Assembly: GCA_963749445.1 (NCBI GenBank) | Contig: CAVVMJ010000005.1 | Location: 98,915 to 162,914 of the forward strand | Source: an uncultured bacterium | Lineage (GTDB): Bacteria; Patescibacteriota; Doudnabacteria; UBA920 | DNA length: 64,000 nt | Direction: 5' to 3' | Position numbers and translations under genes: made by a program | The notes under the pieces: model-generated | The model's database searches: none | What the model saw: the letters and a program-made list of their open reading frames with translations, nothing else | What the model was told of the DNA's origin: nothing | Shown here: positions 2,677-52,371 of the stretch, in pieces | Layout: each line of letters starts with the position of its first letter | How positions within the stretch are numbered: position 1 is the stretch's first letter

Positions 2677-3066
2677 ATGGCACAAAAGATAAATAAATTC
2701 ATTTATTGGACGCCAAGAATTCTGTCAATAATATTTATATGTTTTTTGGCGTTATTTTCGTTTGATGTGATTACTCCTGAATTAAGTTTTTGGCAGATAG
2801 CCGTTGGATTGTTTATGCACAATATCTCGGTATTTATTTTATTGGCTGCCCTGATAATATCCTGGAAACATGAGATTGTCGGAGGAATCGTTTTTATTTT
2901 AGCGGGATTACTGTACATTATTTTTGCGGTACAACGTGCGCCCGGATGGCATATGGTCTTGATTTGGAGCCTAATGATTGCCGGCCCCGCGTTTTTTATA
3001 GGAATTCTATTTATTATTAATTGGCGCAAAAAACGAAATAATCATAATGATGTTTCCGTAAAATAG
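2677..3066 (+). CDS. small integral membrane protein (about 4 TM helices); ORF track start 2545 is probably too far upstream
   Basis: Track ORF 2545..3066. Hydrophobic stretches ILSIIFICFLALFSF, ISVFILLAALIISW, IVFILAGLLYIIF and LIWSLMIAGPAFFIGILFII. A hairpin plus T-run at about 2566-2600 lies inside the 5' extension. Confidence 0.45.
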   Translation: MAQKINKFIYWTPRILSIIFICFLALFSFDVITPELSFWQIAVGLFMHNISVFILLAALIISWKHEIVGGIVFILAGLLYIIFAVQRAPGWHMVLIWSLMIAGPAFFIGILFIINWRKKRNNHNDVSVK

Positions 3067-3166
3067 GTTCTAATGCCGTCCACGATGCTGAAAGATTTGC
3101 CTAAGATAGTTATGCGGAATTGCGGGGATCAGGGGTAATCAAACTTCGTTAGTCCGCACCATGCCT

Positions 3167-3213
3167 TAGAAGCGCTTCGTTTGGTCCTATTCCACTCGAA
3201 GCGCTTCTTTTTT
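3167..3213 (+). terminator. rho-independent terminator after membrane-protein gene
   Basis: agaagcgcttcg ... cgaagcgcttct perfect 12-bp stem followed by TTTTTTGT. Confidence 0.6.
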
Positions 3214-3232
3214 GTAAACTTAAAATTTTTTG

Positions 3233-3275
3233 GCAAAACAAAAGCCGTTCGATGTCCGCGAGGATCACCGAACGG
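3233..3275 (-). terminator. rho-independent terminator for minus-strand gene 3332..4219
   Basis: On minus strand the stem GCCGTTCG...CGAACGGC is followed by TTTTGTTTTG. Confidence 0.5.
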
Positions 3276-3331
3276 CCTGTGGCTGCCAAAGCAGGCCACT
3301 AATGCGAGTCTGTGCGGGCAGGAGAAAGGTG

Positions 3332-4219
3332 TCATCTGGTTCTCGGTTTGTCGGAGAACCAGAACATATTGGGGATTGTCTGGCACTCTCCGTCCTCGAA
3401 ACAGAGCACCACATCAGCGGGATGCTGTGGACCGTTATAGTCCGGCCCCACCACCGCGTCTACGACGAACACCAGCTCGCCATCCTGGTTGGTGGTGACG
3501 GGTCCCTGTTGCCACCAGTACCAGGGGTTGCCCACAAATGTGTGAACAACTCTGTTAGGTGGAAGATTTCCTAACAGCTTGGCCGAAGAGGTAGTTTCGT
3601 TAATCGGGAAAGTCTGCACCCCCGACACAAAATGCAACCCTTTTCCGCTTGGCCCTGTCCGATTGAGGAAAACCCGCGAAACAAGAGGCTGCTGAAGCAG
3701 GCGTCCGCCTTCTGCGTCCACAATTGAGACTTCCACAACATACTCGCCGTACTTCTGGTTTCCGTACCGGTTGAACTGGTAGGACAAAAGCGTCACCAGT
3801 TCGAACCCACCAAAACCTCCCTTATAAAAACCCCAGGAACCGTTGTCTGGCTCGAAGTACAAAGGCTGGACGCTCCCGTCGTAATAGCCGTTGTCCCCGG
3901 GCAGCAAAACCTGCCCGTAAATTTGGGCGTTGATGGCAAGGCCGATGGTGCCTTGCACAAAGATCAGTCTCGGCACCATCGTGTCGCCAACCTCAAAGGC
4001 TTGTTTGCCGGTGTAGAGATACGCCAAGAAATGCGTGTCCGGCGCTGAAACGCCAGCTCCCCGCGCATTAATGCTGTAGGCGGGATGCGCGGTGTAAAAC
4101 TCCTGCGCACTTTGGCGACGAGGCCGGATCATGGGGTCCAACCTCGTTTGGGCGCTGACCAGCACGGCGGCGGCCAGCAGAATCGCGGCGAGCGCCGCTA
4201 GGAACTTTGCGTTCTTCAT
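3332..4219 (-). CDS. secreted hypothetical protein (signal peptide MKNAKFLAALAAILLAAAVLVSAQ)
   Basis: 295-aa ORF with N-terminal signal peptide. No recognisable catalytic motif. Confidence 0.55.
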   Translation of the reverse strand: MKNAKFLAALAAILLAAAVLVSAQTRLDPMIRPRRQSAQEFYTAHPAYSINARGAGVSAPDTHFLAYLYTGKQAFEVGDTMVPRLIFVQGTIGLAINAQIYGQVLLPGDNGYYDGSVQPLYFEPDNGSWGFYKGGFGGFELVTLLSYQFNRYGNQKYGEYVVEVSIVDAEGGRLLQQPLVSRVFLNRTGPSGKGLHFVSGVQTFPINETTSSAKLLGNLPPNRVVHTFVGNPWYWWQQGPVTTNQDGELVFVVDAVVGPDYNGPQHPADVVLCFEDGECQTIPNMFWFSDKPRTR

Positions 4220-4811
4220 CGAGTTTCCTCCAATCCAAAAATTCCACTAAATCCTACCCGCACGTCATATGCAGGCACTACAAGTCCGCGGAGGCCGTTC
4301 ACGATTGCCCCCGGAAAATTGAATACTTTCACCTGTCATTCTGAACCCCGCATCAAGTACGGGGCAAGCTTGTTTCAGAACCCATTCATTGGATTCCGGA
4401 TAGCCCGCGTCCTGACATATCGGGGCTTGTGGCGTCCGGAATGACAAAAAAATCCAAATCTCCGGGGGTAAAACCTCACTCTTCCCTTTTTACCCCGACT
4501 TAATGCCGGGGCTTAAAATCCTCCTCTGTAAAAAATGTTTAAAATCCCACAGCCCACAATTTGGGATTATGGGTTGTAATTATACAACATTTATTTACCT
4601 TTATCAAGGCTCGTGTCACCTATGTATCCCATCTTTTGCAGGCTCACTAAATAAGAAAACATAATTTCTGGTCTGGACAAATTCTGGGATTTTGGTATGC
4701 TGTATAGTCTCACTGTCAACAAGGATTTGCCGAAATTGTGATTCCGTCAATTCTCTGCTGAAAGGCGGAAAAGAGCCAAACCCAAAGGGCTCTCTTGTCA
4801 GGAGGAAAAAG

Positions 4812-6743
4812 ATGAAACATCTGTTAGGTTTGATTGCCTGGATGTTCGTCTACATCCTGGCAATGCCGCCTGCTTTGGCGCAAGAACCGCAGGAGCAGCT
4901 CTGCACCTATAACCTGGGTGCCGGTTGGTTGTTTCCGAAGGGTGTGTATGCCATCGCTCTTCATGACGGCTGGGGACCGCGAACTGCGGAATGTATCGCC
5001 GAACTGAAACGGCGAAACATAACCGCGTCTTTGTTCCAAAACTCTTGCCATTACTTTGGCGAGATCGCGGATTCGCGTTCCGTGAACTGCAAAGGGGTGG
5101 GAAATGTATCCCTGGATCTCCTCAAGGAGCCTGCAGCTGCCCATCAGTTTCTGGGCGACCACGGCGCTAACCATCTGGTTCTGTCAGCCATCCCGCTGGC
5201 AGACGCGCTCAACGAAATTAGGAGGCCGATAGAACTGTTCGGTCCCTATGTGGGCGCGGATAATCCATTCCTATTTACGCCCCCGGGTTGGGTGTGGAAT
5301 GCGGGGCTGGCTAATGCGGCCAACAGCGATCCCGAAATTAGCGGAAAGCTGCAAGGACCGGTCGGAGATGAGTACGACGGTTCTGGTTATATCGGATCGG
5401 TTTACATCCCGAATGATCAGATCTGCATGACGAAGTACAGCGTCCAGCAATGCGCCAAGTTGTTTTTTGACGCCATGGCCGCCGCCAACCACGGCGGGAT
5501 TATAGTCATTCATGACTTTAATCCTTACGCCCCAAACCCTTGGGATCCAACGGATCCCAAAAGCGGGTATGCGTTGGATCTTTTGGTGGCAATTTTGGAC
5601 GGCTGCGCGCAGGCTGTGGGTCAAACATGCACCTTTGTCCGTCCTGATGCCATTCCCGGCATCCGCGGCAGCATGTCAGTGACCTCACTCGGAATAATAT
5701 CAGACCCGCTTGACAACTTTTCGGACAAGATCGCCCCTGTCGTTGTGGGCGATCTTAACCACGACGGCCGTCAAGATGTTCTTGTTGCCCGCAATGACGG
5801 TATGTATTGCGGCATCACGGCTACGAACGGCAGGCAGTACCGGCTTTATCAATGCTTGGCGTTCAGCGGTCCAAGCATGATAGCCGGTCACTATTGGCTG
5901 GCGGATGTGGATGGAGACAGCCTTCCCTATTTGGTTTGGCTTAATAACGAGCAGGGAATGCTCGGAGCCAAGTGGGACGGAGACAGGCATTTCGGAGCAG
6001 TCCGGTTGATCTCGGGTCACTTTGCGGCCAAGTATGGGTGGAACAGCCAAACTTACAACGACACCATCCGTTTTGGCGTTGTGAGAAAAGGTGTTCTGCC
6101 CGACGTTGTGGCCATGACCGCAAGGGGAGTCGCAATTGCCCCCAACAGCGGGCATGGGACATTTGATACGCCGGTGTTAATCCCGGCACTGGGTTATGAC
6201 CCGACGAATCAAGACTGGACGCCGGAGCAAGCCGCTCATAACTTGATGCTCGCCAATCTTAACGGAAACGGCTTGTTAGGTGTTGTCATTCCGGGTTCAA
6301 CTGTTTTGCTCTATGCACAGAACCTGGGCGGCAACGGCTTCGCCGCGTTCCGGCCCCTAGTTACAACCGACGGGTTTAGTTACTGGAACAACCCGTCCGG
6401 CGGCTATTGGACTGCATTCAACACAACCGTGATTAAAGGCCACCCAGCCATCGTAGGTTGGGCGCCAAACGGCTTTGCCTACTCCGGCATCGCCACCGTC
6501 CGCCGTCAGTCTGCACGCACGCCCGCGCAAGTCGCGACCGACAAGGTCGGTTGGATCTGCAACGATTGCTTCGTCAGCTTGCCGGGCTGGCTGGTTGCCT
6601 GGCGGCTGGCTGGCGTCAATCTGACCCCGGAAGTCGGTTTTGCCGACTTTACTGGGAACGGCTCCCCCCAACCGTATGTGTTGTGGACAGGTGGGCTCTA
6701 CACCGCTGACATGCCCCCATCAACCACTTCGCAGATCAAATAA
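4812..6743 (+). CDS. secreted protein with NodB-like polysaccharide-deacetylase-like N-terminal region and FG-GAP/VCBS-type repeats
   Basis: Start at MKHLLGLIAWMFVYILAMPPALA preceded by the RBS aggaggaaaaag (track ORF starts further upstream at 4692). Motifs ALHDGWGP and IIVIHDF. Repeats VVGDLNHDGRQDVLVARNDG and LANLNGNGLLGVVIPG. Confidence 0.5.
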   Translation: MKHLLGLIAWMFVYILAMPPALAQEPQEQLCTYNLGAGWLFPKGVYAIALHDGWGPRTAECIAELKRRNITASLFQNSCHYFGEIADSRSVNCKGVGNVSLDLLKEPAAAHQFLGDHGANHLVLSAIPLADALNEIRRPIELFGPYVGADNPFLFTPPGWVWNAGLANAANSDPEISGKLQGPVGDEYDGSGYIGSVYIPNDQICMTKYSVQQCAKLFFDAMAAANHGGIIVIHDFNPYAPNPWDPTDPKSGYALDLLVAILDGCAQAVGQTCTFVRPDAIPGIRGSMSVTSLGIISDPLDNFSDKIAPVVVGDLNHDGRQDVLVARNDGMYCGITATNGRQYRLYQCLAFSGPSMIAGHYWLADVDGDSLPYLVWLNNEQGMLGAKWDGDRHFGAVRLISGHFAAKYGWNSQTYNDTIRFGVVRKGVLPDVVAMTARGVAIAPNSGHGTFDTPVLIPALGYDPTNQDWTPEQAAHNLMLANLNGNGLLGVVIPGSTVLLYAQNLGGNGFAAFRPLVTTDGFSYWNNPSGGYWTAFNTTVIKGHPAIVGWAPNGFAYSGIATVRRQSARTPAQVATDKVGWICNDCFVSLPGWLVAWRLAGVNLTPEVGFADFTGNGSPQPYVLWTGGLYTADMPPSTTSQIK

Positions 6744-12994: not shown

Positions 12995-14383
12995 TTATAG
13001 GTTAGCTAATTTTGATGCCAAACCGGTGTAATTTTCCGGCGTGAAAGATTTGAGTTCTTTTTTTACGGCATCGGAAACATCCAAATTATCAATGAACCGG
13101 TGAATATCCGCCAGCGTAATTTGTTTGCCGCGAGTTAACTCTTTTAATTGTTCGTACGGCATTTTTACGCCTTCGCGCCGCAAAATGGTTTGAATGGCTT
13201 CGGCCACGACTTCGGGATGGCTGTTTAGATCTTCGCGCACTTTTTGTTCGTTGATTGTTATCCGCGACAAACCCTTGAGTAAATATTCATAAGCGATCAA
13301 ACAATGCGCTAAAGCGGTGCCAAAATTTCTTTCCACCGTGGAATCAGACAAATCCCTTTGAAGGCGAGAGATCGGCAGTTTGCGGGAAAAGAACTCAAAC
13401 AGCGCGTTGGCCATTCCCAAATTTCCTTCGCTGTTTTCAAACTTAATCGGATTAATTTTGTGCGGCATGGTGGAGCTTCCCACGGCACCTTCCACGGGTT
13501 TTTGCACAATCCATTCATCACTAATGTAGCGCCAAATGTCCTGGTTAAAATCAATCAAGATGGTGTTAATGCGACGGAGGTTGTCAAAAATTTCAGCCTC
13601 GCTGTCGTGCGGGTCAATTTGCGTGGCAACAAGGTTTGGCTCTAAGGCAATCAAGCGATTGCGATTGAGGATTTTGATAAATTTTTTGGAAAATTCAACC
13701 CAGTTTATTCTTGGAAAGGCCGCCACGGCCGCGTTAAAGTTGCCCGTGGCGCCGCTGAATTTTACGGAAACTCTTTGGCTTCTTAATTGGTTCAGCTGTT
13801 TTTTTAACCGGTAGCCGAAGACTTTAAATTCTTTGCCAAAGGTGGTGGGGGAGGCGCTTTGGCCGTGGGTGCGGGCCAGCATGGGAAGATTTTTATATTT
13901 TTTGGACAAAGTCTCAAAGGCTTTTTGGATTTTATCGAGCCTGGGAATAATTACCTCTTCCAAGCCTTCGCTTAACATCAGCGCCCGCGCCGGGGTGTTA
14001 ATGTCGTAAGAAGTTAGGGCAAAATGAACCCATTCCAAAACATCCTTAAGCGAGGTATTGGTTAATTTATCTTTGATATAGTATTCCACGGCTTTGACGT
14101 CGTGGTCCGTGGCTTTGATGTTTTTGTAGCCTTTGGTTTCGATGTCGGAAATTATTTGAGCATCGGCATCCGATAAATCGTAAAGCGAGCGGACGAGGGT
14201 TTTTTCTTTAACGGATAAAGATCGCAGGTATTTTTTTGTACCCGGAAGCTCGGAAAGCGCGATTAAGTATTCGCCTTCCACGGCAATTCGATATTTCATC
14301 AAAGCAGCTTCTCTGAAATATTGCGCGAGCGGTTCGGTGGTTTTGCGGTATCGGCCGTCGATGGGGGATATGGAATTTAGCAT
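12995..14383 (-). CDS. purB: adenylosuccinate lyase
   Basis: MLNSISPIDGRYRKTTEPLAQYF..., 462 aa. Confidence 0.9.
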   Translation of the reverse strand: MLNSISPIDGRYRKTTEPLAQYFREAALMKYRIAVEGEYLIALSELPGTKKYLRSLSVKEKTLVRSLYDLSDADAQIISDIETKGYKNIKATDHDVKAVEYYIKDKLTNTSLKDVLEWVHFALTSYDINTPARALMLSEGLEEVIIPRLDKIQKAFETLSKKYKNLPMLARTHGQSASPTTFGKEFKVFGYRLKKQLNQLRSQRVSVKFSGATGNFNAAVAAFPRINWVEFSKKFIKILNRNRLIALEPNLVATQIDPHDSEAEIFDNLRRINTILIDFNQDIWRYISDEWIVQKPVEGAVGSSTMPHKINPIKFENSEGNLGMANALFEFFSRKLPISRLQRDLSDSTVERNFGTALAHCLIAYEYLLKGLSRITINEQKVREDLNSHPEVVAEAIQTILRREGVKMPYEQLKELTRGKQITLADIHRFIDNLDVSDAVKKELKSFTPENYTGLASKLANL

Positions 14384-14386
14384 AGT

Positions 14387-14902
14387 TGTAGCGTGCCGAT
14401 TTATCGGCGTCTAAGTTATTTGTAGAATTGATCAAATTTAAGCAATAATTCTTGGGGATTATTTTGAATGTATTCCCGAATTTTAGTCAGGGCTTTTTCG
14501 TTTCTGACAACGTGTTCATAATAATTCGATTGCCAAAGATTTTGCCCGAAGGTATGGGAAACCTTGGCTTTAAATCTTCGGACGATCTCTCCCAGGTGCA
14601 ATTTGCAGTTGTGAAGGATGAAAATTATATGGATATGATTAGGCATAATCACAAAATAATCCAGTTCAATACCCGGGGTCTTAGATTGGAGGTCTTGCAA
14701 TTCGTTTTCCACTAGAATTTCATTATTTTGAAATAAGTTTTGCCTTAATTTGGCCACAGCGGTCACGAAGTAATATCCATCGGACGTATAATCATATTGT
14801 TTTAGACGAATGTTTTTTCTTCCGTCCATAGGATTGTCCTTCGACGCCGATAAATCGGCACGCTACATAGACCGGTGGGTGTAGCGTGCCCATTTATGGG
14901 CG
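14387..14902 (-). mobile_element. REP-RAYT unit inserted between purC and purB
   Basis: TGTAGCGTGCCGATTTATCGGCGTC at 14387-14411 and its exact reverse complement at 14843-14867 flank the Y1 transposase gene. A variant TGTAGCGTGCCCATTTATGGGCG lies at 14880-14902. Confidence 0.65.
14416..14829 (-). CDS. REP-associated tyrosine transposase (RAYT, IS200-like Y1 HUH transposase)
   Basis: HUH motif MPNHIHIIF. Catalytic-Tyr region NYYEHVVRNE. 137 aa. Confidence 0.75.
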   Translation of the reverse strand: MDGRKNIRLKQYDYTSDGYYFVTAVAKLRQNLFQNNEILVENELQDLQSKTPGIELDYFVIMPNHIHIIFILHNCKLHLGEIVRRFKAKVSHTFGQNLWQSNYYEHVVRNEKALTKIREYIQNNPQELLLKFDQFYK

Positions 14903-14903
14903 A

Positions 14904-15926
14904 TCAGTGTATTTGGTATTTTTTAAGGTTATGCTCAATCCTCTCCGCAATCGGCGTTTGTAAATCCGTTTCAAATTTTTTGCCGGTAATTTGTTCGTAG
15001 ATTTGTATATATCTTGACGACAGCTCGGCAACCATGTCGGCGGGGGCAGCGGGCAAAACTTTGTCTTTGTAGGGGTCGGAATGTTCCTTAAACCACAGGC
15101 GCAGGAACTCTTTGTCAAAATTTTGCGGCTCCTGGCCCGCGTTTATGCGTTCTTGATATGAATCCGCCTGCCAATACCGGGAAGAGTCCGGCGTATGGAT
15201 TTCATCTATTAACGTTAATTTGCCATCATCAGCCAGCCCAAATTCGTACTTGGTATCAACCAAAATCAGCCCGCGGTTTAGCGCTACTTCCTGGCCGCGC
15301 TTAAAAAGTTTGATGGCAATATCGGCTAATTGTTTCCACAATTTTTCCGTCACGATTTTTTCTTTGATGATGTCAGCCGCGCTCAAGGGCCGGTCGTGCT
15401 CATCGGATTTAGTGGTTGGAGTTAGCACTGGTTTATCAAGTTTCCGATTTTTTTTCATCCCGTCGGGCAAAGTAAAATCGCCAAAATTCCGCTCGCCCTT
15501 TTGGTACAAAGTCCACAGCGCGGTACCGGTAACGCCGGTAATGTAGCCTCGCACCACCATTTCAAGGGGAATTACAGAACACTTTTTTACCACTACCGCG
15601 TTGGGGTCGGGGCAATCGATGATGTGATTTTGGATAATATCCTTAGTCTGGTCAAACCAAAACTTGCTGGTCTGCGTAAGCACTTGGCCTTTAAAGGGGA
15701 TAAGCGCAAGATTGCGGTCAAATGCTGAATATCTATCCGTGGATACTAAAATCAGTCTATCCGCCTGGGTATAAATATCCCTTACCTTGCCCTGCCTACG
15801 TTGTCCAAAATTTTTAAATTCCGTTTTTTCCAAGACACGGTGTATGTTTTTTTCGATTGTTTGTTTGTCCATATTTTTTACTATTCTCGTATTCGCGCGA
15901 ATTAGAGATCGATATTTTAATTCCAA
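14904..15926 (-). CDS. purC: SAICAR synthetase (long form); likely true start at MDKQ (15872)
   Basis: GKVRDIYTQADRLILVSTDRYSAFD and VDTKYEFG. Confidence 0.85.
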   Translation of the reverse strand: MELKYRSLIRANTRIVKNMDKQTIEKNIHRVLEKTEFKNFGQRRQGKVRDIYTQADRLILVSTDRYSAFDRNLALIPFKGQVLTQTSKFWFDQTKDIIQNHIIDCPDPNAVVVKKCSVIPLEMVVRGYITGVTGTALWTLYQKGERNFGDFTLPDGMKKNRKLDKPVLTPTTKSDEHDRPLSAADIIKEKIVTEKLWKQLADIAIKLFKRGQEVALNRGLILVDTKYEFGLADDGKLTLIDEIHTPDSSRYWQADSYQERINAGQEPQNFDKEFLRLWFKEHSDPYKDKVLPAAPADMVAELSSRYIQIYEQITGKKFETDLQTPIAERIEHNLKKYQIH

Positions 15927-18244: not shown

Positions 18245-19672
18245 TCATCTGCCGCTCGTAGATGCTACTGGCGACATCTTCTCCTTGCCAGGAGAAGAGG
18301 GAAACACGGATAAGGATTGCTGGCCGATGTCTGTTCTATAATGCATACCGTCAAAGTTTATAAGATTTACAGCGGCGTAAGCTTTGTTGAGGGCGGATTG
18401 TAAATCATCAGCAATTGCCGTGACTCCGAGGACTCGGCCGCCGTTTGTTACCAACCTCTCCCGGCCTTCGGCCGCCCTCCCCTCATCCCTCGACTCCGCT
18501 CGGGGTGACCTTGAGCTTGCCGAAAGGTCATGAGGGGAGGGGCGGGGAGAGGTTGCAGTACCGGCGTGGAAAATTACAATATCACCAAGCTTTTCCGCTT
18601 GTTCTATGCCGGTTATTGGCAAACCTTTTTCGTATTTGCCCGGGTAGCCGCCGCTGGCTAAGACAATACAGCAGGCAAAGCCCGGGTGCCATTCAATTTT
18701 AATTTTATCTAAAGTTCCTTCCACACTAGCCATCAGGACATCAAAAAGATCGGTTTTCATCAGTCTCATCAAACTTTGCATTTCCGGGTCACCGAAACGG
18801 CAGTTAAATTCAATAACCTTGGGGCCGTCATCCGTTAAAATTAATCCGGGATATAACAGTCCCATAAATGGCGAACTTTCTTTTTTTAGGGCTTTGAGGA
18901 TGGGGGTGACTATGGTATTGGCAACGGTATTTAAAAGATTTTGATTTACCCACGGCACTGGAGCAATAGTGCCCATGCCGCCGGTGTTCGGGCCCTTTCC
19001 GTCGTCAAAAATAGGCTTATGATCTTGCGCCGAAGGCAAGAGTTGGAAGTTTTTGCCGTCGCAAAAAGCGTGGATGGAAAATTCCGGTCCTTGTAAAAAT
19101 TCTTCTATGACTACGTCGTTGCCTGCGTCGCCGAATACTTTTTCCACCATCGCGGCCTTTAGCGCGGCCTTAGCTTCGGTCATTGTCTTGCATACTGTTA
19201 CGCCTTTTCCCAAAGCAAGGCCCGAAGCTTTAATAACTATGGGGGCTTTTATGGTTTCCAGATATTTAAGCGCGTGGTCGTAATTGCTAAAGACTTGGAA
19301 GCGCGCGGTCGGGATATTGGCTTTTTGCATCAAGTCTTTGGCAAAGGCTTTGGAAGCTTCTATGCGCGCCGCCGCCTGGGTCGGCCCCCAAATCAGCAGT
19401 TTGCGTTTTTTAAATTTATTGACAATCCCCAAAGCCAGCGGGTCATCTTGTCCCACTACCGTCAAATCAATTTTCTTTTTTTCCGCAAAATCAGCTAAGG
19501 CATCAATATCTGTGGCTTTGATGTCGATGTTCTCGGCGACTTGCGCCGTGCCGCCGTTGCCCGGGGCCACATAAATTTTCCCGACTTTGGGTGACTGTTT
19601 TAGTTTCCACGCCAAAGCGTGCTCCCGCCCGCCGCCGCCGATGATTAAGATTTTAGATAAGTTTTGCCTCAT
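18245..19672 (-). CDS. purD: phosphoribosylamine-glycine ligase carrying an in-frame 34-aa palindromic-element insertion
   Basis: KILIIGGGGREHALAWKL... 475 aa versus about 425 typical. The extra segment SPRPSPHDLSASSRSPRAESRDEGRAAEGRERL sits just before the conserved VTNGGRVLGV. Confidence 0.85.
   Translation of the reverse strand: MRQNLSKILIIGGGGREHALAWKLKQSPKVGKIYVAPGNGGTAQVAENIDIKATDIDALADFAEKKKIDLTVVGQDDPLALGIVNKFKKRKLLIWGPTQAAARIEASKAFAKDLMQKANIPTARFQVFSNYDHALKYLETIKAPIVIKASGLALGKGVTVCKTMTEAKAALKAAMVEKVFGDAGNDVVIEEFLQGPEFSIHAFCDGKNFQLLPSAQDHKPIFDDGKGPNTGGMGTIAPVPWVNQNLLNTVANTIVTPILKALKKESSPFMGLLYPGLILTDDGPKVIEFNCRFGDPEMQSLMRLMKTDLFDVLMASVEGTLDKIKIEWHPGFACCIVLASGGYPGKYEKGLPITGIEQAEKLGDIVIFHAGTATSPRPSPHDLSASSRSPRAESRDEGRAAEGRERLVTNGGRVLGVTAIADDLQSALNKAYAAVNLINFDGMHYRTDIGQQSLSVFPSSPGKEKMSPVASTSGR
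18452..18555. repeat. GC-rich palindromic insertion element inside purD (family B core CCCTCGACTCCGCTCGGGG)
   Basis: caacctctccc...gggagaggttg terminal inverted repeats, an internal tgacc...ggtca hairpin and the core ccctcgactccgctcgggg. About 104 bp. Confidence 0.7.
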
Positions 19673-24900: not shown

Positions 24901-24951
24901 CAGCCGCCCCTCGACTTCGCTCGGGACGACCCTGTCGGGTCGTTTGCAGCT
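24901..24951. repeat. family B element (CCCCTCGACTTCGCTCGGG + CGACCCTGTCGGGTCG hairpin) inside purL middle segment
   Basis: Encodes NDPTGSSRAKSRGGC in frame. Confidence 0.65.
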
Positions 24952-39782: not shown

Positions 39783-39875
39783 ATCATTGACATAATTGCC
39801 ATAATTTAAATAATTGCCATAAATATTGGGCCTATTATTTATGTTCAATTATGTCAATTATGTCAATAACATCAT

Positions 39876-41154
39876 GACTCAATCCGCCGCGGGGGATAGC
39901 GAACTGTCATCAATCTACAAACTGCCGCGCGCCACCTGCCCTTACTGCGGCCACAATCCCAGCCCACATTTTTTTACCTGGTACGTGGAAAGCCTGGACA
40001 TTTTATTGGCGCCTTTGCGCCGGTTAATTTTTTACAACCCCGCATCGCGTTTGGTAAGGCGGTGGTTAAAATCGCGGCAGTTTGGCTGGCGTTTTGCCTC
40101 GCTGCTGTTAAAACTGCGGGTGTTCCAAAAGCAGTCTGACATATCGGTTTGCAAAGTCCGCCGCGCCCAGGTCTTGTGGGAAGAAGCGCAAAAACGCGGC
40201 ATCAAATTTTTCGGCCTAAAATTGTTCGGCAAAAATTTGGATATGTACCTGGCCGAGAAAAGCGGCAAAAGGTTGTTTATTGACGGCTTGCCGCGGCCGC
40301 AAAATTCTGACGGCGGCATGCTGGACGTAATGGATGACAAGCTGCTGTTAAAAAATAAATTGGCAGCTGCCGGTTTGCCCGTGCCAGCCGGCGGGAGCGC
40401 GACCGGAATGCCATCAGCTGTTAAAATTTTCCGCTTGATTGATAAACCAGTTATCGTTAAGCCGCGTACCGGCAGCCGTGGGAGACACACCACCACTTTT
40501 GTCCGGACGGAAGAAGATTTGCGGCAGGCCGTCAAAGTCGCCAAGCAGCTTTGCCATTGGGTAATGGTGGAGGAGCAGCTGTTTGGCCCGGTTTACCGTG
40601 CCACGATTATTGATGGCCCCTCGACTTCGCCCCTTCGGCCTCGAGCTCAGGGCCGAGAGGTCGGGACAAGCAAGCTTGCCGGAGTTTTACGCGGCGACCC
40701 GCCGCAGGTAACTGGGGATGGCAAACATACTATCGCGCAGCTGATAAATATCAAAAACTCGCAGCCGCACCCGAGGGTTAAGGACATAGTTATGGACTCA
40801 TCAGCAGAGTTATTTTTGCAGCGCCAGCAATTATTCGCCGACACGATTTTGCCAGCCGGCCAGATTGTACCGATATCCGAAAAAATCGGCCTCAATTCCG
40901 GAGGGTCGTCCAGCGAAGATTTTGACATTTGCCATCCGGACAATGCGGAGCTGTTTTTGCGCGCCGCCGAGGTTTTGGGCGACCCGCTGGTGGGTTTTGA
41001 TTTTATTATTCCCGACATAGCAAAATCGTGGAAAAGCCAAAAATGCGGATTCATTGAAGCCAACTCCCTGCCCTTCATCAATCTCCATCACGATCCACTG
41101 AAAGGAGCCCCCCGCAACGCCGCCGCCCTGGTTTGGGAGATGATGGGAATGTGA
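39876..41154 (+). CDS. ATP-grasp protein resembling the N-terminal domain of cyanophycin synthetase, with in-frame element insertion
   Basis: VIVKPRTGSRGRHTT, ATIIDG...LAGVLRGDPPQVTGDGKHTIAQLI, ILPAGQIVPISEKIGLNSGGSS and VGFDFIIPDI. Track start 39826 is encoded by repeat motifs. Confidence 0.6.
40617..40666. repeat. family B element (CCCCTCGACTTCGCCCCTTCGGCCTCGAGCTCAGGGCCGAGAGGTCGGG) inside ATP-grasp gene
   Basis: Encodes PSTSPLRPRAQGREVGTS between the conserved IIDG and KLAGVLR. Confidence 0.65.
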
Positions 41155-43764: not shown

Positions 43765-43775
43765 CATTTACCTCT

Positions 43776-44259
43776 CCTACGAACTTACGAACATTTCGAA
43801 CTACGAACTGACCCGTTATGCCAATAAAACCAAAGATAAGGAAACAAGATTTATTATATCCTGACTTATCGTATGAAATTATTGGCGCGTTGCTTGCGGT
43901 ATACAAAGCTTTGGGGCCGGGACTCCCGGAAAAAGTTTACCAAAGAGCGGTCGCGGAGGAATTAAGGAGAAGAGGGATAAAGTTCCAAGAGCAGGTTCCG
44001 GTAAAAATAATTTACGAGGGCATTCCTATAGGAATTTATTATGCCGATTTCGTCATTGAAGATAAAATTGTTTTGGAATTAAAAACTTACAGATTTTTTA
44101 GCAGAAAAAATATTGACCAAACAGTCGGTTACTTAAAAAGTTTAAAATTACAGCTCGGTATGCTAGCCAATTTTACCAGAAATGGTTTGGAATATAAAAG
44201 AATAATTAATCTTACGTAAGAAGCCGGTTCGTAGTTCGTAACTTTCGTAAGTTCGTAGG
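43776..44259 (+). mobile_element. GxxExxY gene cassette bounded by about 36-bp imperfect inverted repeats
   Basis: Left: CCTACGAACTTACGAACATTTCGAACTACGAACTGACC. Right: CCGGTTCGTAGTTCGTAACTTTCGTAAGTTCGTAGGA, which is the reverse complement with a few mismatches. Confidence 0.5.
43818..44219 (+). CDS. GxxExxY family protein
   Basis: GPGLPEKVYQRAV fits G-x-x-E-x-x-Y. 133 aa. Confidence 0.7.
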   Translation: MPIKPKIRKQDLLYPDLSYEIIGALLAVYKALGPGLPEKVYQRAVAEELRRRGIKFQEQVPVKIIYEGIPIGIYYADFVIEDKIVLELKTYRFFSRKNIDQTVGYLKSLKLQLGMLANFTRNGLEYKRIINLT

Positions 44260-44268
44260 ATCATCAAT

Positions 44269-46480
44269 ATGAAACCAAAACCGCCCGGCAGACGCCATAC
44301 GCCTCACTTACATCATCAAACTAAAATTAACCAAACCATTATGGATAAGGTCAAAATCAAAAGGGTAAAAAGGGATAAAAAGAAAGCCACAACAAAAGAA
44401 AAGATTTTGGCCGGTTTGGGCGTGGGCGGAACCCTGATGGGCGGCATTGCGGGAATGCAGGCTAAACCCAGCGCGCAGACGAAACTTGTCAGCATCACCG
44501 GCACCGAGCAGTCCAGCGGCACTTCCAAAATTAAATCCGCAATAAAAAAGCTTTTTGGCGCGACCATTGGAGCGCAGACGGCCAAGGCGGAAGAAAATAC
44601 CACCACAACCCGCACAGTTACAGATCCGGATACTGGTCAAATTACCACTTATTACGACACCACTATTAATGGTATGCCTGTAACGGTTGACCAAAACGGC
44701 ACTACCTGGATAAATCAGGGCAACGGAGCCGAGCAGGTTGACCCGCAGGATTACGGCATAGATCCCAATGCCATACAAACGCAGGCTACCACGTCGTCAG
44801 ATACTTCCGGAACCTCCGGCACAAGCGGCACATCTGGCACATCAGGGACTTCTGGTGACGATGGTTCAAGCGGCACTTCCGGTACATTTCCGGGACTTCT
44901 GGCACATCAGGTGACGGTGGCGGTACAGCGGTGACATGGCGACAGTGGTGACAGCACCACTAATACCGGCCCCACCCTAACCGGCGCGCCAACCTTAAAC
45001 TCCAGCGGCACGGGCATTGATGTGTCCGGTTTGGCATCTAGTGGCGGCAGCAGCGGCATCAGCATTGACGACAGCCAGGTTAACTACAATGTTCCCGGCA
45101 CCTACACCGTAACCATCAACGCTTACGACAGTTCCGGCAACCTGACTTCCCAGACATACCAGGTCACAGTTCCGGCTACATCTGGAACCGCGGTACATCT
45201 GGGACTTCTGGTGAACTCTGGCACTTCCGGTAGTAGCGACGCCACTAATACTGGCCCCACCCTAACCGGCGCACCAACCCTAAACTCTAGTGGCACGGGT
45301 ATTGATGTCTCCGGTTTGGCATCTAGTGGCGGCGGCAGCGGCATCAGCATTGACGACAGCCAGGTTAACTACAATGTTCCCGGCACCTATACCGTAACCA
45401 TCAACGCTTATGACAGTTCCGGCAACCTGACTTCCCAGTCATACCAAGTCACAGTTCCGGCTACCTCAGGTACATCAGGTACCATCTGGAACCAGTCGGC
45501 ACTTCTGGTACATCCGGTACTTCTGGTGCCACAACCGGCCCCACCTTAACCGGTTTGCCAACCCTAAATTCCACTGGCACGGGCATTAACGTGTCCGGCT
45601 TGACGTCCTCGGGTGGCAGCGACAATATCAGCATTGACGACAGCCAGGTTAACTACAATGCTCCCGGCACCTATACCGTAACCATCAACGCTTACGACAG
45701 TTCCGGCAACCTGACTTCCCAGACTTATCAGATAACAATTCCGGCTACCTCAGGTACCTCTGGCACATCAGGGACATCCGGAACCAGTGGCACAAGTGGC
45801 ACTTCCGGCACTCTGGAACCAGCGGAACCTCTGTCGATTTAGGAGCCCCTGTTTCCGGCTCTATACCATCCCGACTCCAACAATTCTTACAGCTGGACAG
45901 CCTCGACTGCCACCATTGGCGGCCAGCAATACACTAACCTAAACCTTTCCGCCCTGTCGGACGGCCGGATTATTGCCTACATTAACCGGCTGGCACGGAC
46001 GTGACTTCAGGTTTACACCTTGCGGCATGACCGGGACTTTATATTCCGCCTATAAGTGCTAGCTCCGGAGCCTGGTACCTCCGGCACTATCAGGGACTTC
46101 GGGTACATCGGGCACATCATGTACATTCGGTACTACTGGAACTTCAGGTCATCTGTCATCTCAGGCACTCGTCGCCGTCCGCCACAACCGGCAACGTACC
46201 ACCCGTGGTTACATTGAACAACGGCGTGTATACGGCTTCGGTGACTATCAACGGGCAAACCTATACGGCTACAGGATCCACTTTGGGCGATTTGAACAGT
46301 AATATGCAAAAGTACAATAATCTTACCGGCAATAACCAGCAAGTTTTTGCGGCTTTGGCTCAGGCTTCCGACGCCTACGCGTTGAAGCAATATAACGCGA
46401 CGCAAGCGGGTAAAACCCCGGGCAACGGCGCGCCAATTGATATATCCACCGCTTCCGTGTACGGCTCCGATGAGTTATGA
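44269..46480 (+). pseudogene. large surface protein gene with three tandem ~95-aa Ig-like repeats separated by (SGT)n linkers; reading frame broken at the linker microsatellites
   Basis: Track ORFs 44269..44934, 45022..45549, 45555..45842 and 46205..46480 each encode the same unit TGPTLTGAPTLNSSGTGIDVSGLASSGGSSGISIDDSQVNYNVPGTYTVTINAYDSSGNLTSQTYQVTVPATSGTSGT, in different frames. Confidence 0.5.
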
Positions 46481-46810
46481 AACCGCTTACAGCAAGTATT
46501 TGGCCCAGTACTAAGGATCACAACATCAACCCCAACCCCGACCCAACTAACTGACGCGCTCGCCGCTTTGGCAAAGGCTTCGACTCAGGCCGATAATAAT
46601 TTCCAGACTTCGTGGTAGCCAGGATAAAGCGGACCTGATTTATGATCAGACTTACAATAACTGGTTATTAATCATCAGGTCAGACCGGATTAAATATCCA
46701 GACAACCTGCTCCCACTCCGCCTGCCGGTTATGTTCCGCCGGGGACAAGAGCTATCTCCACCAGCAATTCTACCACCGTTACCAACCAGGTTAATGGCCA
46801 AACCATTAGC

Positions 46811-49800
46811 TTGACTTTTGTTAATAATTCGGGCGGCAGCACCAGCACTTTGAAAGTGGGAGACAGTTGGACCATAACCGTTACCGGTCCCAACGGTCCG
46901 GTTTATTCCAGCGACAAAAACGGCAACAACCGCACTTTGATGGGTACTATTACAAACGGGGTTCTTCAGTTGTCCGGGACTGTGACTAGCAACGAGACAG
47001 GTCCCTGGAACGAGGTCTGGACTTACGGCGGCACCGCTAACTCAAACGCAAGCCAATCGGGCGGCTCAATTTCAGTTCCGGTCAGCAATTCCACCGTTAT
47101 TAGCGGCGCAACAGGTTACCGGTCAGCCCATAAATCTTACTTTTACCAACAACACGAGCGGCGACACCAGCGATTTAAAAGTCGGAGACAACTGGACCAT
47201 AACCATTACCGGTCCCGACGGTCCGGTTTATGCCAGCGAGCCGGATGGCAGCGACCGCACCTTGATGGGCTACATCAAGGCGGCAGTTCTCAATTGAACG
47301 GAACCATTACCAGCGACCAGGATGGTCCATGGAATGAGCTTTGGACCTTATGGCGGCACCACTAACTCAAATGCGGTCGGAACAATAGGAACCTTACAAT
47401 TCGGCGTTGCCGGTTCGGCCAGTTTGAACTTTACCAATGCCGGCGGCGGAACCAACGCCTTGGGCTTAGGCAACAGCTGGGTTATTGATATCAAAAATTC
47501 CGCTCCCAATGCTCCGGTCTACGGCGTGAACGCCGGCGGCGTGAGCTATCTTGGAATGACCGACGATCAGGGCAATTTCCACTTGGTGGGCCCCAGTTTG
47601 ACCCAAGCGGGCGATTGGCAAGTAAATATTGAAGTCGGCCAATCCGGCGATAGGCAAAGCGCAGGCTTACAACCGAATACTGTGGTCCATAATGTGGACA
47701 CCACTAAATTGACCCAAGTCGGCGATACTTTAAAGTTCAATGTTGCCACTACCCCGGCTCTTACTTTAGCTACGTTTAACCCTACTTTAATCCCAACGAA
47801 TCTTCTTACCGTGACTTTTCCGGGCGTATCAAACGGTACCTTACAACTTACTCAAAACTACAACAATCAATACTATGCCGATGCGACGACAGCTCAAAAT
47901 TTAGCAACGTTCTACGGTGGCACAGCGGTTAAAGTGCCGTTAAATTATGGCGGCGTTACCCTAAGCCCGGATGCGGCTTTTTACTGGGAAATTCAGTTTC
48001 CCGACGGTACGCAAATGAACGCCGGACAGTTAGCCACTTATTTTATTAACAATCCCCCGGCGCAGTTCCCGGGTTTGGCTGACACTTACGTTAAAAATGC
48101 GATTGCCTCGGCCGAATACTACCACGCTAATCCCAACGCGCCGGCAGGTTCCTATCCTGTTGCCACAACGGGCGGCCCGATTATTACCAGCACTCCCGCG
48201 GTAATAAATCCCAATACGCCCGTTACTCCGGCCGGAACGCTGGCCATAATTTCTCCGGTGACTTCAGCCTTGTTGGTCGGTACCGGTTATAATCTCCAAT
48301 TTACGGCCACCGGCGGCAGCGGTTCTTATACCTGGAGCGGCAGCGGATCCGTACCCACAGGTATGATTTTTGATGCCACCGGCAAGTTTTCCGGTACGCC
48401 CAGCAAAGCCGGAACGTATACTTTTTACGTAACGGCAAAAGACACAAAAACCAATACCGCCGTGACCAGTTCCGCCATTACCGTAACGGTGCAGGCTCCG
48501 GCTACAACCACCCAGACTGTTGCTACCCCGGTGATTAACGCCAACGGCGTAACGGCCAATGTTACGGCAGGCACTTTAACCATCATGGGCAGTAATTTTA
48601 ATACCAGTTTAACCGGCAACAGCGTGCAGGTTGTCAACAGCGCGGGTGTGGTAACCACCGCCTTAACGGTTTCGGCGGTAAACGCCGGTGGCACCCAGAT
48701 TACAGCTCTGCTACCCACGGGTTTAGCGGCAGGCACTTATACCTACAACGTGCAGGTCGTTAATACCGCGGATCCGAGCTTTAAAGCTTCCAACCGCGTA
48801 TCGGTTACCTTTACGATTGCGGCCGCGCCGCAATCCGCCGCGGCTACCGGTTCCAATGCAGCTCAATCCCAATCCGCCGCGGCAGCCAGTTCCGGCTTAT
48901 TGACCACGGCCCAGTTAAGTAATTATCAGACTGCTAACTTATTGACTATAGACCAGTTAAACAATACTCAAAGCACCGGCAATTTGACTCTGGATCAGCT
49001 GCGGGCAGGCGCGTCATCCGGTGCCGCCGGCTCCGCCGCCGCAAGCACCCTGACCATGGGTGATTTGACTTCAGACGGCGGCTCCGCTAAAACCGGTGCA
49101 GCTACCAAAACCGGTTCTACCGCCAGCTCCACAGGCGGCTTGACTATTGATGATTTGACATCAGGCGGCAGTTCCGCAAATGCCGGTAAAGCCACGACAG
49201 GCACCCTTACTATGGGTGATTTATCCGATCAAACTGGTAATGTTGCCGCAGCCGCAAGCACCGGCAGCGCTGCCGCCGCGTCATCCGCCGCCACCGGTAC
49301 AACATCCGGAACTTCATCCTCCACCACCAATACCGGAGGCGGCGGTGGGGGAGGCGGCACTTCATCCGGCGGCGGCGGGATTATAGCCGGCATTACGCCG
49401 TTCTTTACCACCATCAACCCGGCCAATGGGGCAGTCGGCCAATCCTACAGCGGTTCTATTCAGGCCATCAGCAACTACACTGTGACTTTCAACCTGATTG
49501 GCGGCTCCTTGCCTCCGGGACTGTCAATGAGTTCCGGCGGGACCATCACGGGCACCCCGACTACTGCCGGCACTTATACCTTTACGGTTCAAGCCGCAAC
49601 GTCGCAAGATGTTACCGCCACCAAGCAGTTCACTCTGGTTGTCGGCGCGGCCGGCAGTTCAATCGGCGGCGGAGTGTTAAACATGCAAAGCCTGGGCTCA
49701 ATCCAACAGGTAGCCGGAGCGCAGACTTTCCAGGGACTTCAGATGCCGAGCGGTTACGCGGCTTCGGGTGATGGTTCAGCCACCGGCGGCCTGCAGTACC

Positions 49801-51080: not shown

Positions 51081-51175
51081 CCCTTTGATTCTTTTCGGGT
51101 TTGAAATAACCAAAAAACCACTGTGATACGGTGGTTTTTTGATTTAAACTAGATCTGTTGGGTCTGTTAACTAAA

Positions 51176-51304
51176 TCGGTTGGTGGATAAATCAAAATCG
51201 CGGGACTGGTGCATATATCTGTTGGTGGATAAATCAAAATCGCGGGACTGGTGCATATATCTGTTGGTGGATAAATCAAAATCGCCTGTAGCTACAGGCG
51301 ATTT
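51176..51304. repeat. 42-bp direct repeats x2.6 (iteron-like), ending in a hairpin
   Basis: Unit CTGTTGGTGGATAAATCAAAATCGCGGGACTGGTGCATATAT. Third copy is truncated into aaaatcgcctgtagctacaggcgatttt. Confidence 0.7.
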
Positions 51305-51469
51305 TGTGTATTTTTTCGTTACTAATTTCGTTTTTGAAATTAGTTTTATTTTTATCGCAATCGGTAAATTATGAATGCCTTATAAACACTAGCGTTCATC
51401 GATAATTTTAACGTTTAGCGAACGAATTTACCAACCAAAATGGTTAACAGTCCCGATCTGTTGCGTTTG

Positions 51470-51575
51470 CGCGTACGTACGCGTATATTAAACAAATGAT
51501 ATTTTAGCGAAAAGCTGTTTCCGGATAAATTGTAAATTTGTTGCATTTATTCGTACGTACGAATAAATGCAACAA
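51470..51575. promoter_or_regulatory. palindromes CGCGTACGTACGCG (51470-51483) and the 38-bp perfect palindrome TTGTTGCATTTATTCGTAC|GTACGAATAAATGCAACAA (51538-51575)
   Basis: Read directly. A related 20-bp palindrome ATACGCGTACGTACGCGTAT lies at 52155-52174 on the other side of gene 51593..52126. Confidence 0.5.
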
Positions 51576-51592
51576 AGCCCGCGGTAAATAAT

Positions 51593-52126
51593 TCAGCCTG
51601 ACCCGGTGAGTTTAAAGTGTTTCAACAAATCCTTGTCGTCGTCCAACTCCTCCAGCCTGCCTATGCGGATATAATCAATCAGTCCTGTACTTTTCAGGTA
51701 CGTTATCGCCTCGCGGTTCAGCGGGTAAGGGGTCAGGTAGACGCTGGCCTGGAGTTTGAAGAATTCACCGGATTTTAGCAGCCTTCTGAGTTTGTCGCGC
51801 TTGTCGTTGGCATCGCGGGGGATATCAAACATAATCATCCGCCATTTGCCGTCCCACGTTTGTTTTTTGGGCAGCCATGCTTTGGCCATAAGCAGTTCCA
51901 GCTGGCCTTTGCGGGTCAAGCGCAAAAATTTTTGTCCCGCCGCGGTTTTTGTGATGTTTACATAGCCTTTGCGGCGGAGCCTGTAGGCGGTTTGGCGGTA
52001 TTGTTCGTAAGTGCCCGGCTGGCGTTTTTGCTCCCATTGCCGTTTGGATGAAAAAATGGACGTGAAGCCGTCTACAAAGGCAAATAACAGAAAACTTTGG
52101 GGATAGTGTCTTAAACTTCGCGGCAT
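51593..52126 (-). CDS. hypothetical protein, wHTH-like N-terminal half plus Cas2/PaaX-C-like C-terminal half
   Basis: RQTAYRLRRKGYVNITKTAAGQKFLRLTRKGQLEL. C-terminal WRMIMFDIPRDANDKRDKLRRLLKSGEFFKLQASVYLTPYP fits the strand-DIP-basic helix-strand pattern of Cas2/PaaX C-domains. Confidence 0.4.
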   Translation of the reverse strand: MPRSLRHYPQSFLLFAFVDGFTSIFSSKRQWEQKRQPGTYEQYRQTAYRLRRKGYVNITKTAAGQKFLRLTRKGQLELLMAKAWLPKKQTWDGKWRMIMFDIPRDANDKRDKLRRLLKSGEFFKLQASVYLTPYPLNREAITYLKSTGLIDYIRIGRLEELDDDKDLLKHFKLTGSG

Positions 52127-52371
52127 ATTTTTTGATTTATCCTATGTGTTTAATATACGCGTACGTACGCGTATTGTCAACAGATTATGTTTGGTGGAAA
52201 GCGCGGTTTTTGATTTTTGATGTGGCAACAGTTGTTTAGTTTATGCGTACGTGCGTGTAAACGCAACAAGGGAAAGCGATTGATAAAACATTCCTGATTT
52301 TGACGGCCGTCAAAATCAGGAATGTAATAAAAATCGAGAATGAAATCGGGAAATCTTGCCTGTCGGCGGAA

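Follow-up and report, generated by a model that had tools for sequence, protein, structure and literature searches.

We analyzed a 64,000-nt stretch of DNA, hereafter the window, from an uncultured Candidatus Doudnabacteria-like member of the Patescibacteria (assembly GCA_963749445.1, contig CAVVMJ010000005.1, positions 98,915 to 162,914, forward strand), and in it a short unit lying between the purine-biosynthesis genes purC and purB. The unit comprises a gene for a 137-aa REP-associated tyrosine transposase (RAYT) and three copies of a repetitive extragenic palindrome (REP), and we think it very probable that these form a REPtron, that is, a single-copy, vertically inherited RAYT (TnpA_REP) gene with cognate REPs on both sides. 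As stated in a preliminary description of this DNA, RAYT lies co-directionally between purC and purB, all three on the minus strand; purB closes the co-directional run purD-HAD-purE-purM-purC-RAYT-purB, and the same gene order is found at a related locus, L002 (handles of this kind denote loci from other assemblies). The window has a G+C content of 48.8% and no tRNA genes; no Rfam family reached its gathering score from 1 to 64000, and at E<=1 the RAYT locus gave no relevant Rfam match. The features are as follows, in the order in which they would be transcribed, with the supporting evidence in brackets.

14904..15872, minus strand: purC (SAICAR synthetase), the upstream neighbor (Pfam SAICAR_synt, 244 bits)
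14880..14902, plus strand: REP3, C-type, TGTAGCGTGCCCATTTATGGGCG (motif scan with free hairpin positions, inverted repeat, fold)
14843..14902, unstranded: head-to-head doublet of REP2 and REP3 with a 12-nt spacer (inverted repeat I2, 91% complementary)
14843..14867, minus strand: REP2, G-type, the exact reverse complement of REP1 (exact match, inverted repeat)
14416..14829, minus strand: RAYT / TnpA_REP-like gene, 137 aa, for a predicted Y1 HUH single-strand DNA endonuclease/transposase (open reading frame (ORF), Pfam, NCBIfam, PDB 4ER8, AlphaFold model)
14629..14637, minus strand: HUH codons H65-I66-H67 (CAT ATC CAT), aligned to H59-M60-H61 of Escherichia coli TnpA_REP
14470..14472, minus strand: codon of Y120, the predicted nucleophilic tyrosine (REYIQNNP), aligned to Y115 of 4ER8
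14387..14411, plus strand: REP1, G-type (exact match, hairpin fold, inverted repeat I1)
12995..14383, minus strand: purB (adenylosuccinate lyase), the downstream neighbor (Pfam Lyase_1 and ASL_C)

Read along the operon, the purC stop codon is followed after 1 nt by REP3 in inverse orientation, after a further 12 nt by REP2 in sense orientation, 13 nt upstream of the RAYT ATG in a spacer that includes GAAGGA, and then by RAYT itself; REP1, again an inverse copy (iREP) when read in the operon mRNA, begins after 4 nt and ends 3 nt before the purB ATG. REP1 is composed of TGTAG, a CGT linker, the hairpin GCCGAT-TT-ATCGGC and a final GTC. The exact 25-bp repeat and reverse complement reported earlier, each with its hairpin, were borne out: TGTAGCGTGCCGATTTATCGGCGTC occurs at 14387-14411 (plus strand) and 14843-14867 (minus strand), and in none of 100 shuffles. 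Allowing S at two hairpin positions adds a third copy, GTAGCGTGCCCATTTATGGGC, at 14881-14901 (plus strand), in whose stem the changes are compensatory (G>C and C>G, turning GCCGAT..ATCGGC into GCCCAT..ATGGGC). This variant copy had also been announced as overlapping the purC stop; it is indeed present at 14880-14902, but its 23-nt core ends 1 nt short of that codon (14904-14906), which is reached only by the 25-nt frame. With up to three mismatches allowed, these three copies at the RAYT locus are the total for the window. The REP stem is perfect and bulge-free, with 5-6 bp, while REP2 and REP3 taken as one strand form a long imperfect hairpin with two mismatches, with a computed fold of -38.3 kcal/mol as RNA (z -6.5; no U-tract follows the hairpin) and of -23 kcal/mol as DNA (z -6). 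A target-site duplication, raised by the likeness of the REP1 and REP3 flanks (D1, 78% over 36 nt), was considered and rejected: outside the REP the likeness comes down to TATTTG, and this falls within the ends of two different coding regions.

By sequence and predicted fold the 137-aa protein is a RAYT, nearest to TnpA_REP. Its score against Pfam Y1_Tnp (PF01797) is 35.4 bits, above the cut-off of 23, and among the NCBIfam models it scores 73.2 bits with NF047646 REP_Tyr_transpos (cut-off 80) and 25.3 bits with the IS200 model (cut-off 55). Among solved structures the only significant sequence match is E. coli TnpA_REP (PDB 4ER8, E=4e-8), whose HUH residues H59-M60-H61, catalytic tyrosine Y115 and metal-binding N119 align with H65-I66-H67, Y120 and N124, respectively; these roles are stated for the E. 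coli protein in PMC3479197. The preliminary description had called the protein an HUH Y1 transposase, a designation that would lapse if the HUH and tyrosine motifs failed to align with PF01797; both are in place. It had rightly taken HIHIIF for the HUH motif, but YYEHVVRNE does not supply the nucleophile: Y104, E105, H106 and R109 of that motif are invariant in 30 homologues, yet the nucleophile is Y120, in REYIQNNP. H65, Y120, N124 and P125 are likewise invariant in these homologues, and H67 is at least 90% conserved. An AlphaFold (AF2) model built on the 30 homologues (predicted local distance difference test, pLDDT, 84.2; predicted template modeling score, pTM, 0.77) places Y120 on a helix spanning residues 111-123, and the best Foldseek match of the model is 4er8_A (E 4e-9, TM-score 0.72, root-mean-square deviation (rmsd) 2.2 Å), with transposases of the IS200/IS605 insertion sequences (IS) ranking next at an rmsd of 6-14 Å. 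The protein stops 12 residues past the NNP motif, its alignment to 4ER8 breaks off at residue 121 of the 165-residue chain, 11-12 residues before the end of the query, and beyond helix alpha-D the model has a single 4-residue helix. Group 2 RAYTs have a C-terminal extension (~20-25 aa, with G160/E161) and REPs that are long and bulged; this system has neither.

A protein search returned 483 homologues, mostly of exactly 137 aa, from metagenomes and from metagenome-assembled genomes (MAGs) named Candidatus Doudnabacteria or Patescibacteria, some of them labeled 'RayT' by the Joint Genome Institute (JGI); a search for the exact 137-aa protein returned only a Logan contig of 4.9 kb with the same sequence as the window. 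Homologues at 62-67% identity lie between tatD and leuS (L006, L009) and between bacA and parB (L008), always co-directional and tightly packed. All nine loci found via the protein have a GTAG-hairpin REP on both sides, with GTAG distal and the hairpin proximal to the gene. The 3-nt linker of the REP follows the protein clade: the purC-purB clade has CGT, as do its relatives at 68%, and the linkers of the tatD-leuS and bacA-parB clades are T-rich. The REP 21-mer, in turn, is identical between genomes whose neighboring coding DNA is only ~74% identical and saturated at synonymous sites, as would be expected if the encoded protein recognizes the REP. The pair of REPs flanking the gene is homotypic in the window and in L163 (both G/G) and in L066 (C/C), and heterotypic in L002, L005 and L085 (C/G); inversion of a REP doublet was rejected as the cause of the swap of G and C types between the window and L002, as recombination in head-to-head repeats would flip the spacer alone. 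Two side observations belong here. In the MAG JBBREH, the most REP-rich assembly, there is a far more divergent RAYT-like gene at 38-39% identity (L059 68-514 and L096 204-663, the latter copy broken into two frames), and the 137-aa orthologue was not seen in the parts of that MAG that were fetched. At L008, ~4830-5000, the REPs around the bacA-parB RAYT have a tRNA-like 3' end (GGTTCGACTCCCTCCCGCGGCACCA) immediately upstream.

Outside the RAYT locus the REP is dispersed through related genomes. A scan with GTAGCGTGCCNATTTATNGGC, which has 19 fixed bases, over one genome per species (596 Gb) found at least 112 matching stretches, where by our own arithmetic ~4 would be expected by chance. Among the matches listed, nearly all are in MAGs of Doudnabacteria and other Patescibacteria, and the two free hairpin positions form a Watson-Crick pair in 140 of 145 cases (G/C 68, C/G 67, A/T 5). 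Other variants, GCTGAT/ATCAGC and GCTCAT/ATGAGC, still pair, and with double changes at two stem pairs 100% of cells in the stem alignment pair, a result that none of 500 shuffles reaches; some rows of that alignment had been pre-selected for pairing, and the unbiased test is the count of 140/145 at the free positions. The three richest MAGs have at least 45, at least 26 and at least 18 copies, spread across many contigs. The preliminary description had held that a motif occurring only here would count against a REP family; this is the situation within the 64-kb window, but it does not extend to the lineage. Again among the matches listed, most copies are convergent doublets with GTAG outside, hairpins inside and a spacer mostly of 10-11 nt, and all 49 convergent doublets (L011-L122) are heterotypic, joining one GCCGAT-type to one GCCCAT-type, with no homotypic doublet, so that the long hairpin of the doublet, or REPIN, always carries two mismatches.

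The REPs of the relatives sit at non-orthologous sites, some of them in-frame within genes, and 50 of 182 copies lie within a stop-free span that extends at least 200 nt to either side. Placement was judged by this stop-free-span test together with direct protein alignments, because ORFs run through REPs and make ORF cover unreliable. In-frame doublets were found in leuS, purD and an ATP-grasp gene of related Doudnabacteria genomes. Individual cases include leuS of L080 (3732-6701), with REPs at 4200/4232 and 5031/5070; purD of L113 and of L087/L002; and the ATP-grasp gene of L051 (5318-6631), where a clean 19-aa insertion is absent from the window orthologue (39826-41154). Translated doublets yield peptides such as CSVPIHGRSKDADKSARYT. 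Exact REP 21-mers also occur as singletons in MAGs of Campylobacteraceae, Sutterella, Deltaproteobacteria, Elusimicrobiales, Syntrophaceae, Ignavibacteria and Gammaproteobacteria, in a number near the ~4 expected by chance. The three copies within 300 bp in a Saprospiraceae MAG (L041), with an A/T-variant hairpin and no RAYT homologue within 8 kb, are beyond chance; binning contamination or horizontal transfer could account for them.

The history of the unit can be read from its neighbors. Orthologues occupy the same purC-RAYT-purB position at 84% (L002-L004), 78% (L005) and 86% (L163) identity, so that this order is kept in at least four species-level lineages, and RAYT identities of 86, 84 and 78% parallel purC identities of 84, 83.5 and 78.5%. 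Between these syntenic orthologues nonsynonymous divergence (pN) is 0.08-0.15, while synonymous divergence (pS) is saturated (at least 0.74). The window itself contains one RAYT copy. Eighty metagenome loci anchored on purB were compared, and RAYT was present in one of them (L163); in most of those with purC upstream, purC and purB are separated by 7-46 nt and no REP. The comparison with RAYT-less relatives proposed in the preliminary description therefore yields mostly abutting genes, with one telling departure. L123, which has the most similar purB in the scan (81%), lacks RAYT but retains (345-447) a C-type REP, a 46-nt spacer and an inverse G-type REP directly before the purB ATG; the GTAG of its first REP provides the purC stop codon (GTG TAG), and its spacer ends with a 20/23 match to the last 23 nt of the RAYT ORF, which 0 of 300 shuffles reach. 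The spacer is a deletion remnant, so the gene was once present in that ancestor. We conclude from these sequence comparisons that the RAYT unit is in all likelihood an old, vertically inherited resident of the purC-purB slot with occasional loss, in line with the housekeeping-like behavior of RAYTs reported in PMC5581495. To call it an insertion, as was done initially, is misleading, as it is syntenic in several species and lost in one.

We also note some features of the slot in other genomes. At L163 (purC 1339-2301, RAYT 2554-2967, purB 3001-4383) identity to the window is 84% in purC and 86% in RAYT and falls to 66% in purB across the downstream REP, which could reflect recombination or an assembly junction at the REP; its upstream gap holds five REP copies. 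In other lineages the slot is occupied by a DUF559 endonuclease gene between G/C-rich hairpins (at L135 2589-2972 and, independently, at L150 2623-2949), by an unassigned 215-aa ORF (L141 2322-2969), or by other sequence of 0.6-1.1 kb with GTGACA...TGTCAC hairpins at its sides (L160, L174). Small selfish elements seem to have landed repeatedly at the purC-purB junction.

Taken together, these results argue for the REPtron, and the preliminary description of the arrangement as REP/RAYT was sound: the protein is nearest to TnpA_REP, inverted GTAG-hairpin copies flank the gene at each of the nine loci, the hairpins covary, and the REP is dispersed in relatives. By analogy with E. coli TnpA_REP, the protein would bind single-stranded REP DNA, reading the short perfect hairpin and the 5' GTAG tag; H65, H67 and N124 would hold a metal ion that activates the target phosphate, and Y120 would cut the strand to form a 5'-phosphotyrosine link, with strand transfer rejoining the ends. 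REP doublets (REPINs) would in this way be copied around the genome while the RAYT gene remains in place. The mobile unit of this lineage would be the convergent doublet, with GTAG outside, hairpins inside, a spacer of 10-11 nt, and one GCCGAT-type and one GCCCAT-type REP.

Several points weigh against this interpretation. RAYT-driven REP mobility in vivo has been demonstrated for no system (PMC8266576). The NCBIfam equivalog score of 73.2 is under the curated cut-off of 80, and the ~25-aa C-terminal tail of E. coli TnpA_REP, with its E161, is missing. Within the 64 kb the REP is found at the RAYT locus only, so that dispersal in the source genome is not seen, and stretches syntenic to 18.3-25.6 kb of the window bear REPs in relatives and none in the window itself; the source genome may be REP-poor. 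Finally, the REPs flanking the gene in the window are both G-type, as opposed to the heterotypic dispersed doublets of relatives, and the window doublet REP2/REP3 is head-to-head rather than tail-to-tail.

Of the alternatives, the one that fares best, improbable as we judge it, is that the REPs act chiefly as RNA or DNA elements of the host (mRNA stabilizers, attenuators, stalling hairpins or protein-binding sites) kept for operon regulation, with RAYT an inactive passenger or no longer the agent of their spread. The REPs are well placed for such a role, at 1-5 nt after the purC and RAYT stops (the hairpins begin 1 nt after the former and 5 nt after the latter) and 3 nt before the purB start; the RNA hairpin of REP2/REP3 is very stable, dispersed copies are not seen in the window, and E. 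coli ribosomes are reported (Liang 2015, as cited in PMC12306157) to stall at REPs that lie within 15 nt of a stop codon. A dead passenger, however, would not be under the strong purifying selection seen in RAYT, with its invariant catalytic residues, and a REP 21-mer that is identical across saturated genomes and of a type that follows the RAYT clade fits protein recognition. The REPs of relatives at non-orthologous sites, including in-frame positions in genes, resemble mobility rather than site-specific regulation, and regulatory side-effects would in any case be compatible with the REPtron, not exclusive of it.

The same junction bears on the expression of the operon. A scan for sigma-70-like promoters and intrinsic-terminator-like sites found none on the coding strand between the purC stop and the purB start, although the scan was simple and sigma-70 based, so that its silence is weak evidence. 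Because of this, and of the tight purC-purB junction (7-46 nt) in relatives, co-transcription of RAYT with purC and purB is a plausible and the most economical reading, and transcripts most likely run through the 520-bp unit into purB; that purB depends on such read-through, as asserted at the outset, would follow. As RNA, the REP hairpins might conceivably also stabilize or attenuate the transcript, or make terminating ribosomes stall. The lack of a Shine-Dalgarno sequence before purB is shared with REP-less relatives, so REP1 displaced none.

Among the alternatives to the REPtron, we rate lower still an autonomous, selfish insertion sequence of the IS200/IS605 type, present in many copies, spreading horizontally and only recently inserted between purC and purB. 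The Y1 HUH fold and the hairpin-flanked architecture are common to both, the slot does host other small nuclease genes elsewhere (DUF559, at L135 and L150), and presence is patchy (1/80 purB-anchored loci). This reading is largely refuted by the single copy in 64 kb, by same-slot orthologues at 78-86% identity that diverge in step with purC, and by the absence of an adjacent tnpB-sized ORF. On either side of the gene stands the same short repeat, inverted, and this repeat is also dispersed without the gene, whereas IS200/IS605 elements have distinct left and right ends; the IS200 model reaches 25 bits against 73 for the RAYT model, and the fold is far nearer TnpA_REP than IS608 or ISDra2. The least credible proposal, that RAYT has taken on a host role connected with purine metabolism, can point to the purC-RAYT-purB order conserved in at least four species-level lineages and to a co-directional, tightly spaced gene, but founders on close homologues in unrelated housekeeping contexts (tatD-leuS at L006 and L009, bacA-parB at L008), on a slot that is empty in most relatives, one of which lost the gene, and on a protein without any hint of a role in nucleotide metabolism.

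The locus is, then, a known kind of system (a REPtron as Ton-Hoang and Corneloup use the term, or a RAYT-REPIN system as Bertels and Rainey do) in a new host lineage; at the level of sequence the defining features are there apart from the NCBIfam cut-off, narrowly missed, and genome-wide over-representation is seen in relatives only. The best match in sequence and fold is E. coli TnpA_REP (YafM) with its REPs and bacterial interspersed mosaic elements (BIMEs), a group 2 REPtron (4ER8; Messing 2012, PMC3479197; Ton-Hoang 2012, PMC3333891). The two have in common the aligned HUH motif, nucleophilic tyrosine on helix alpha-D and asparagine metal ligand, a single-copy gene flanked by inverted REPs with a 5' GTAG tag, and two REP sub-types that pair in doublets, as do the Y and Z types of BIMEs. 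Identity, however, is 25%, with 137 aa here against 165 aa in E. coli, and the REPs are short perfect hairpins of 5-6 bp where those of E. coli are long and bulged. In the E. coli protein the tail residue E161 sits in the active site and the terminal 13 residues (delta-152 truncation) inhibit; this autoinhibitory tail is missing here.

Group 3 REPtrons (Pseudomonas, Stenotrophomonas, Marinomonas Mb; Corneloup 2021, PMC8266576), to which we liken the system by description, also have short perfect palindromes after GTAG and no E161 tail, and their gene is vertically inherited and behaves as a housekeeping gene. As with REPINs (Bertels and Rainey, 2011; PMC3116915) and group 3, copies in relatives are mostly inverted doublets with a short spacer. 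In contrast to group 3, however, copies in relatives number dozens rather than hundreds to thousands, doublets are strictly heterotypic, and the host belongs to the small-genome Patescibacteria. With the IS200/IS605 TnpA proteins (IS608, ISDra2) the system has in common the Y1 HUH fold, predicted hairpin substrates in single-stranded DNA and the logic of a guide tetranucleotide, and it differs in its single copy in the window, identical inverted ends, lack of tnpB, and IS200 model score of 25 against 73 bits; the poor superposition (rmsd 6-14 Å) is as expected if helix alpha-D sits in cis, as in the monomeric TnpA_REP. In-frame REPs, and GTAG serving as a stop codon, as seen in the relatives, have already been described for GTAG REPs in other phyla, in a paper on intragenic GTAG REPs and Rickettsia palindromic elements (Di Nocera 2013; PMC3733652), although none of the three window REPs is intragenic and this behavior belongs to related genomes only.

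The window also holds repeats and genes of other kinds. Inside purD (18455-18545, minus strand) lies an in-frame, G/C-rich imperfect palindrome of ~90 nt that encodes ~30 aa (TSPRPSPHDLSASSRSPRAESRDEGRAAEGRE) and is absent from the purD of relatives; its pieces (CCCTCGACTYCGCTCGGG, CCCCTCCTT...AAGGAGGGG) recur near 24903, 29369, 29467, 23872-23933/26287-26348 and 26252/56963, and it appears to represent a second, unrelated palindromic repeat family. At 43775-44260, a gene for a 133-aa PD-(D/E)XK_3 (GxxExxY-type) nuclease (43818-44219) stands between 34-nt inverted repeats (43775-43808 and 44227-44260) made of ACGAAC-like units. At 51456-52185, an ORF of 177 aa with a PaaX/Cas2-like domain (51593-52126, minus strand) stands between 42-nt inverted repeats with CGCGTACGTACGCG, and three 42-nt tandem repeats lie just upstream (51160-51285). 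A very long gene built of diverged ~300-nt repeats (59800-64000) runs off the end of the window, and a protein with long Gly-Thr-Ser repeats is encoded at 44300-47300; both are probably surface proteins.

Work on REP/RAYT systems has so far been almost confined to the Proteobacteria. Our literature search found no paper tying RAYTs or REPINs to the Patescibacteria or Candidate Phyla Radiation, and PMC6006769 is without mention of them; the annotation by JGI already labels homologues as 'RayT'. For annotation, the gap between purC and purB should be read as no operon breakpoint, and the REP-derived peptides (CSVPIYG...ADKSARY) in proteins of relatives as insertions rather than domains. A very small RAYT (137 aa, no inhibitory tail) together with a short perfect REP in two natural compensatory variants would be convenient for studying how group-3-like RAYTs read their hairpins. 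The wider point is that a streamlined, host-dependent lineage keeps a REP/RAYT system inside a housekeeping operon over long evolutionary time. We would go one step further, tentatively and at somewhat less than even odds, and propose that a compact, tail-less, Patescibacteria-specific RAYT clade maintains a long-lived, two-type REPIN population in genomes of ~1 Mb. The proposal draws on the REP 21-mer conserved despite saturated synonymous sites, on the heterotypic doublets and on their in-frame settling in essential genes (leuS, purD), which would occur because little intergenic space is available. If it is true, it would provide biochemistry with a minimal RAYT free of autoinhibition, and would extend the idea of REPIN-RAYT systems as nested replicators to the Candidate Phyla Radiation.

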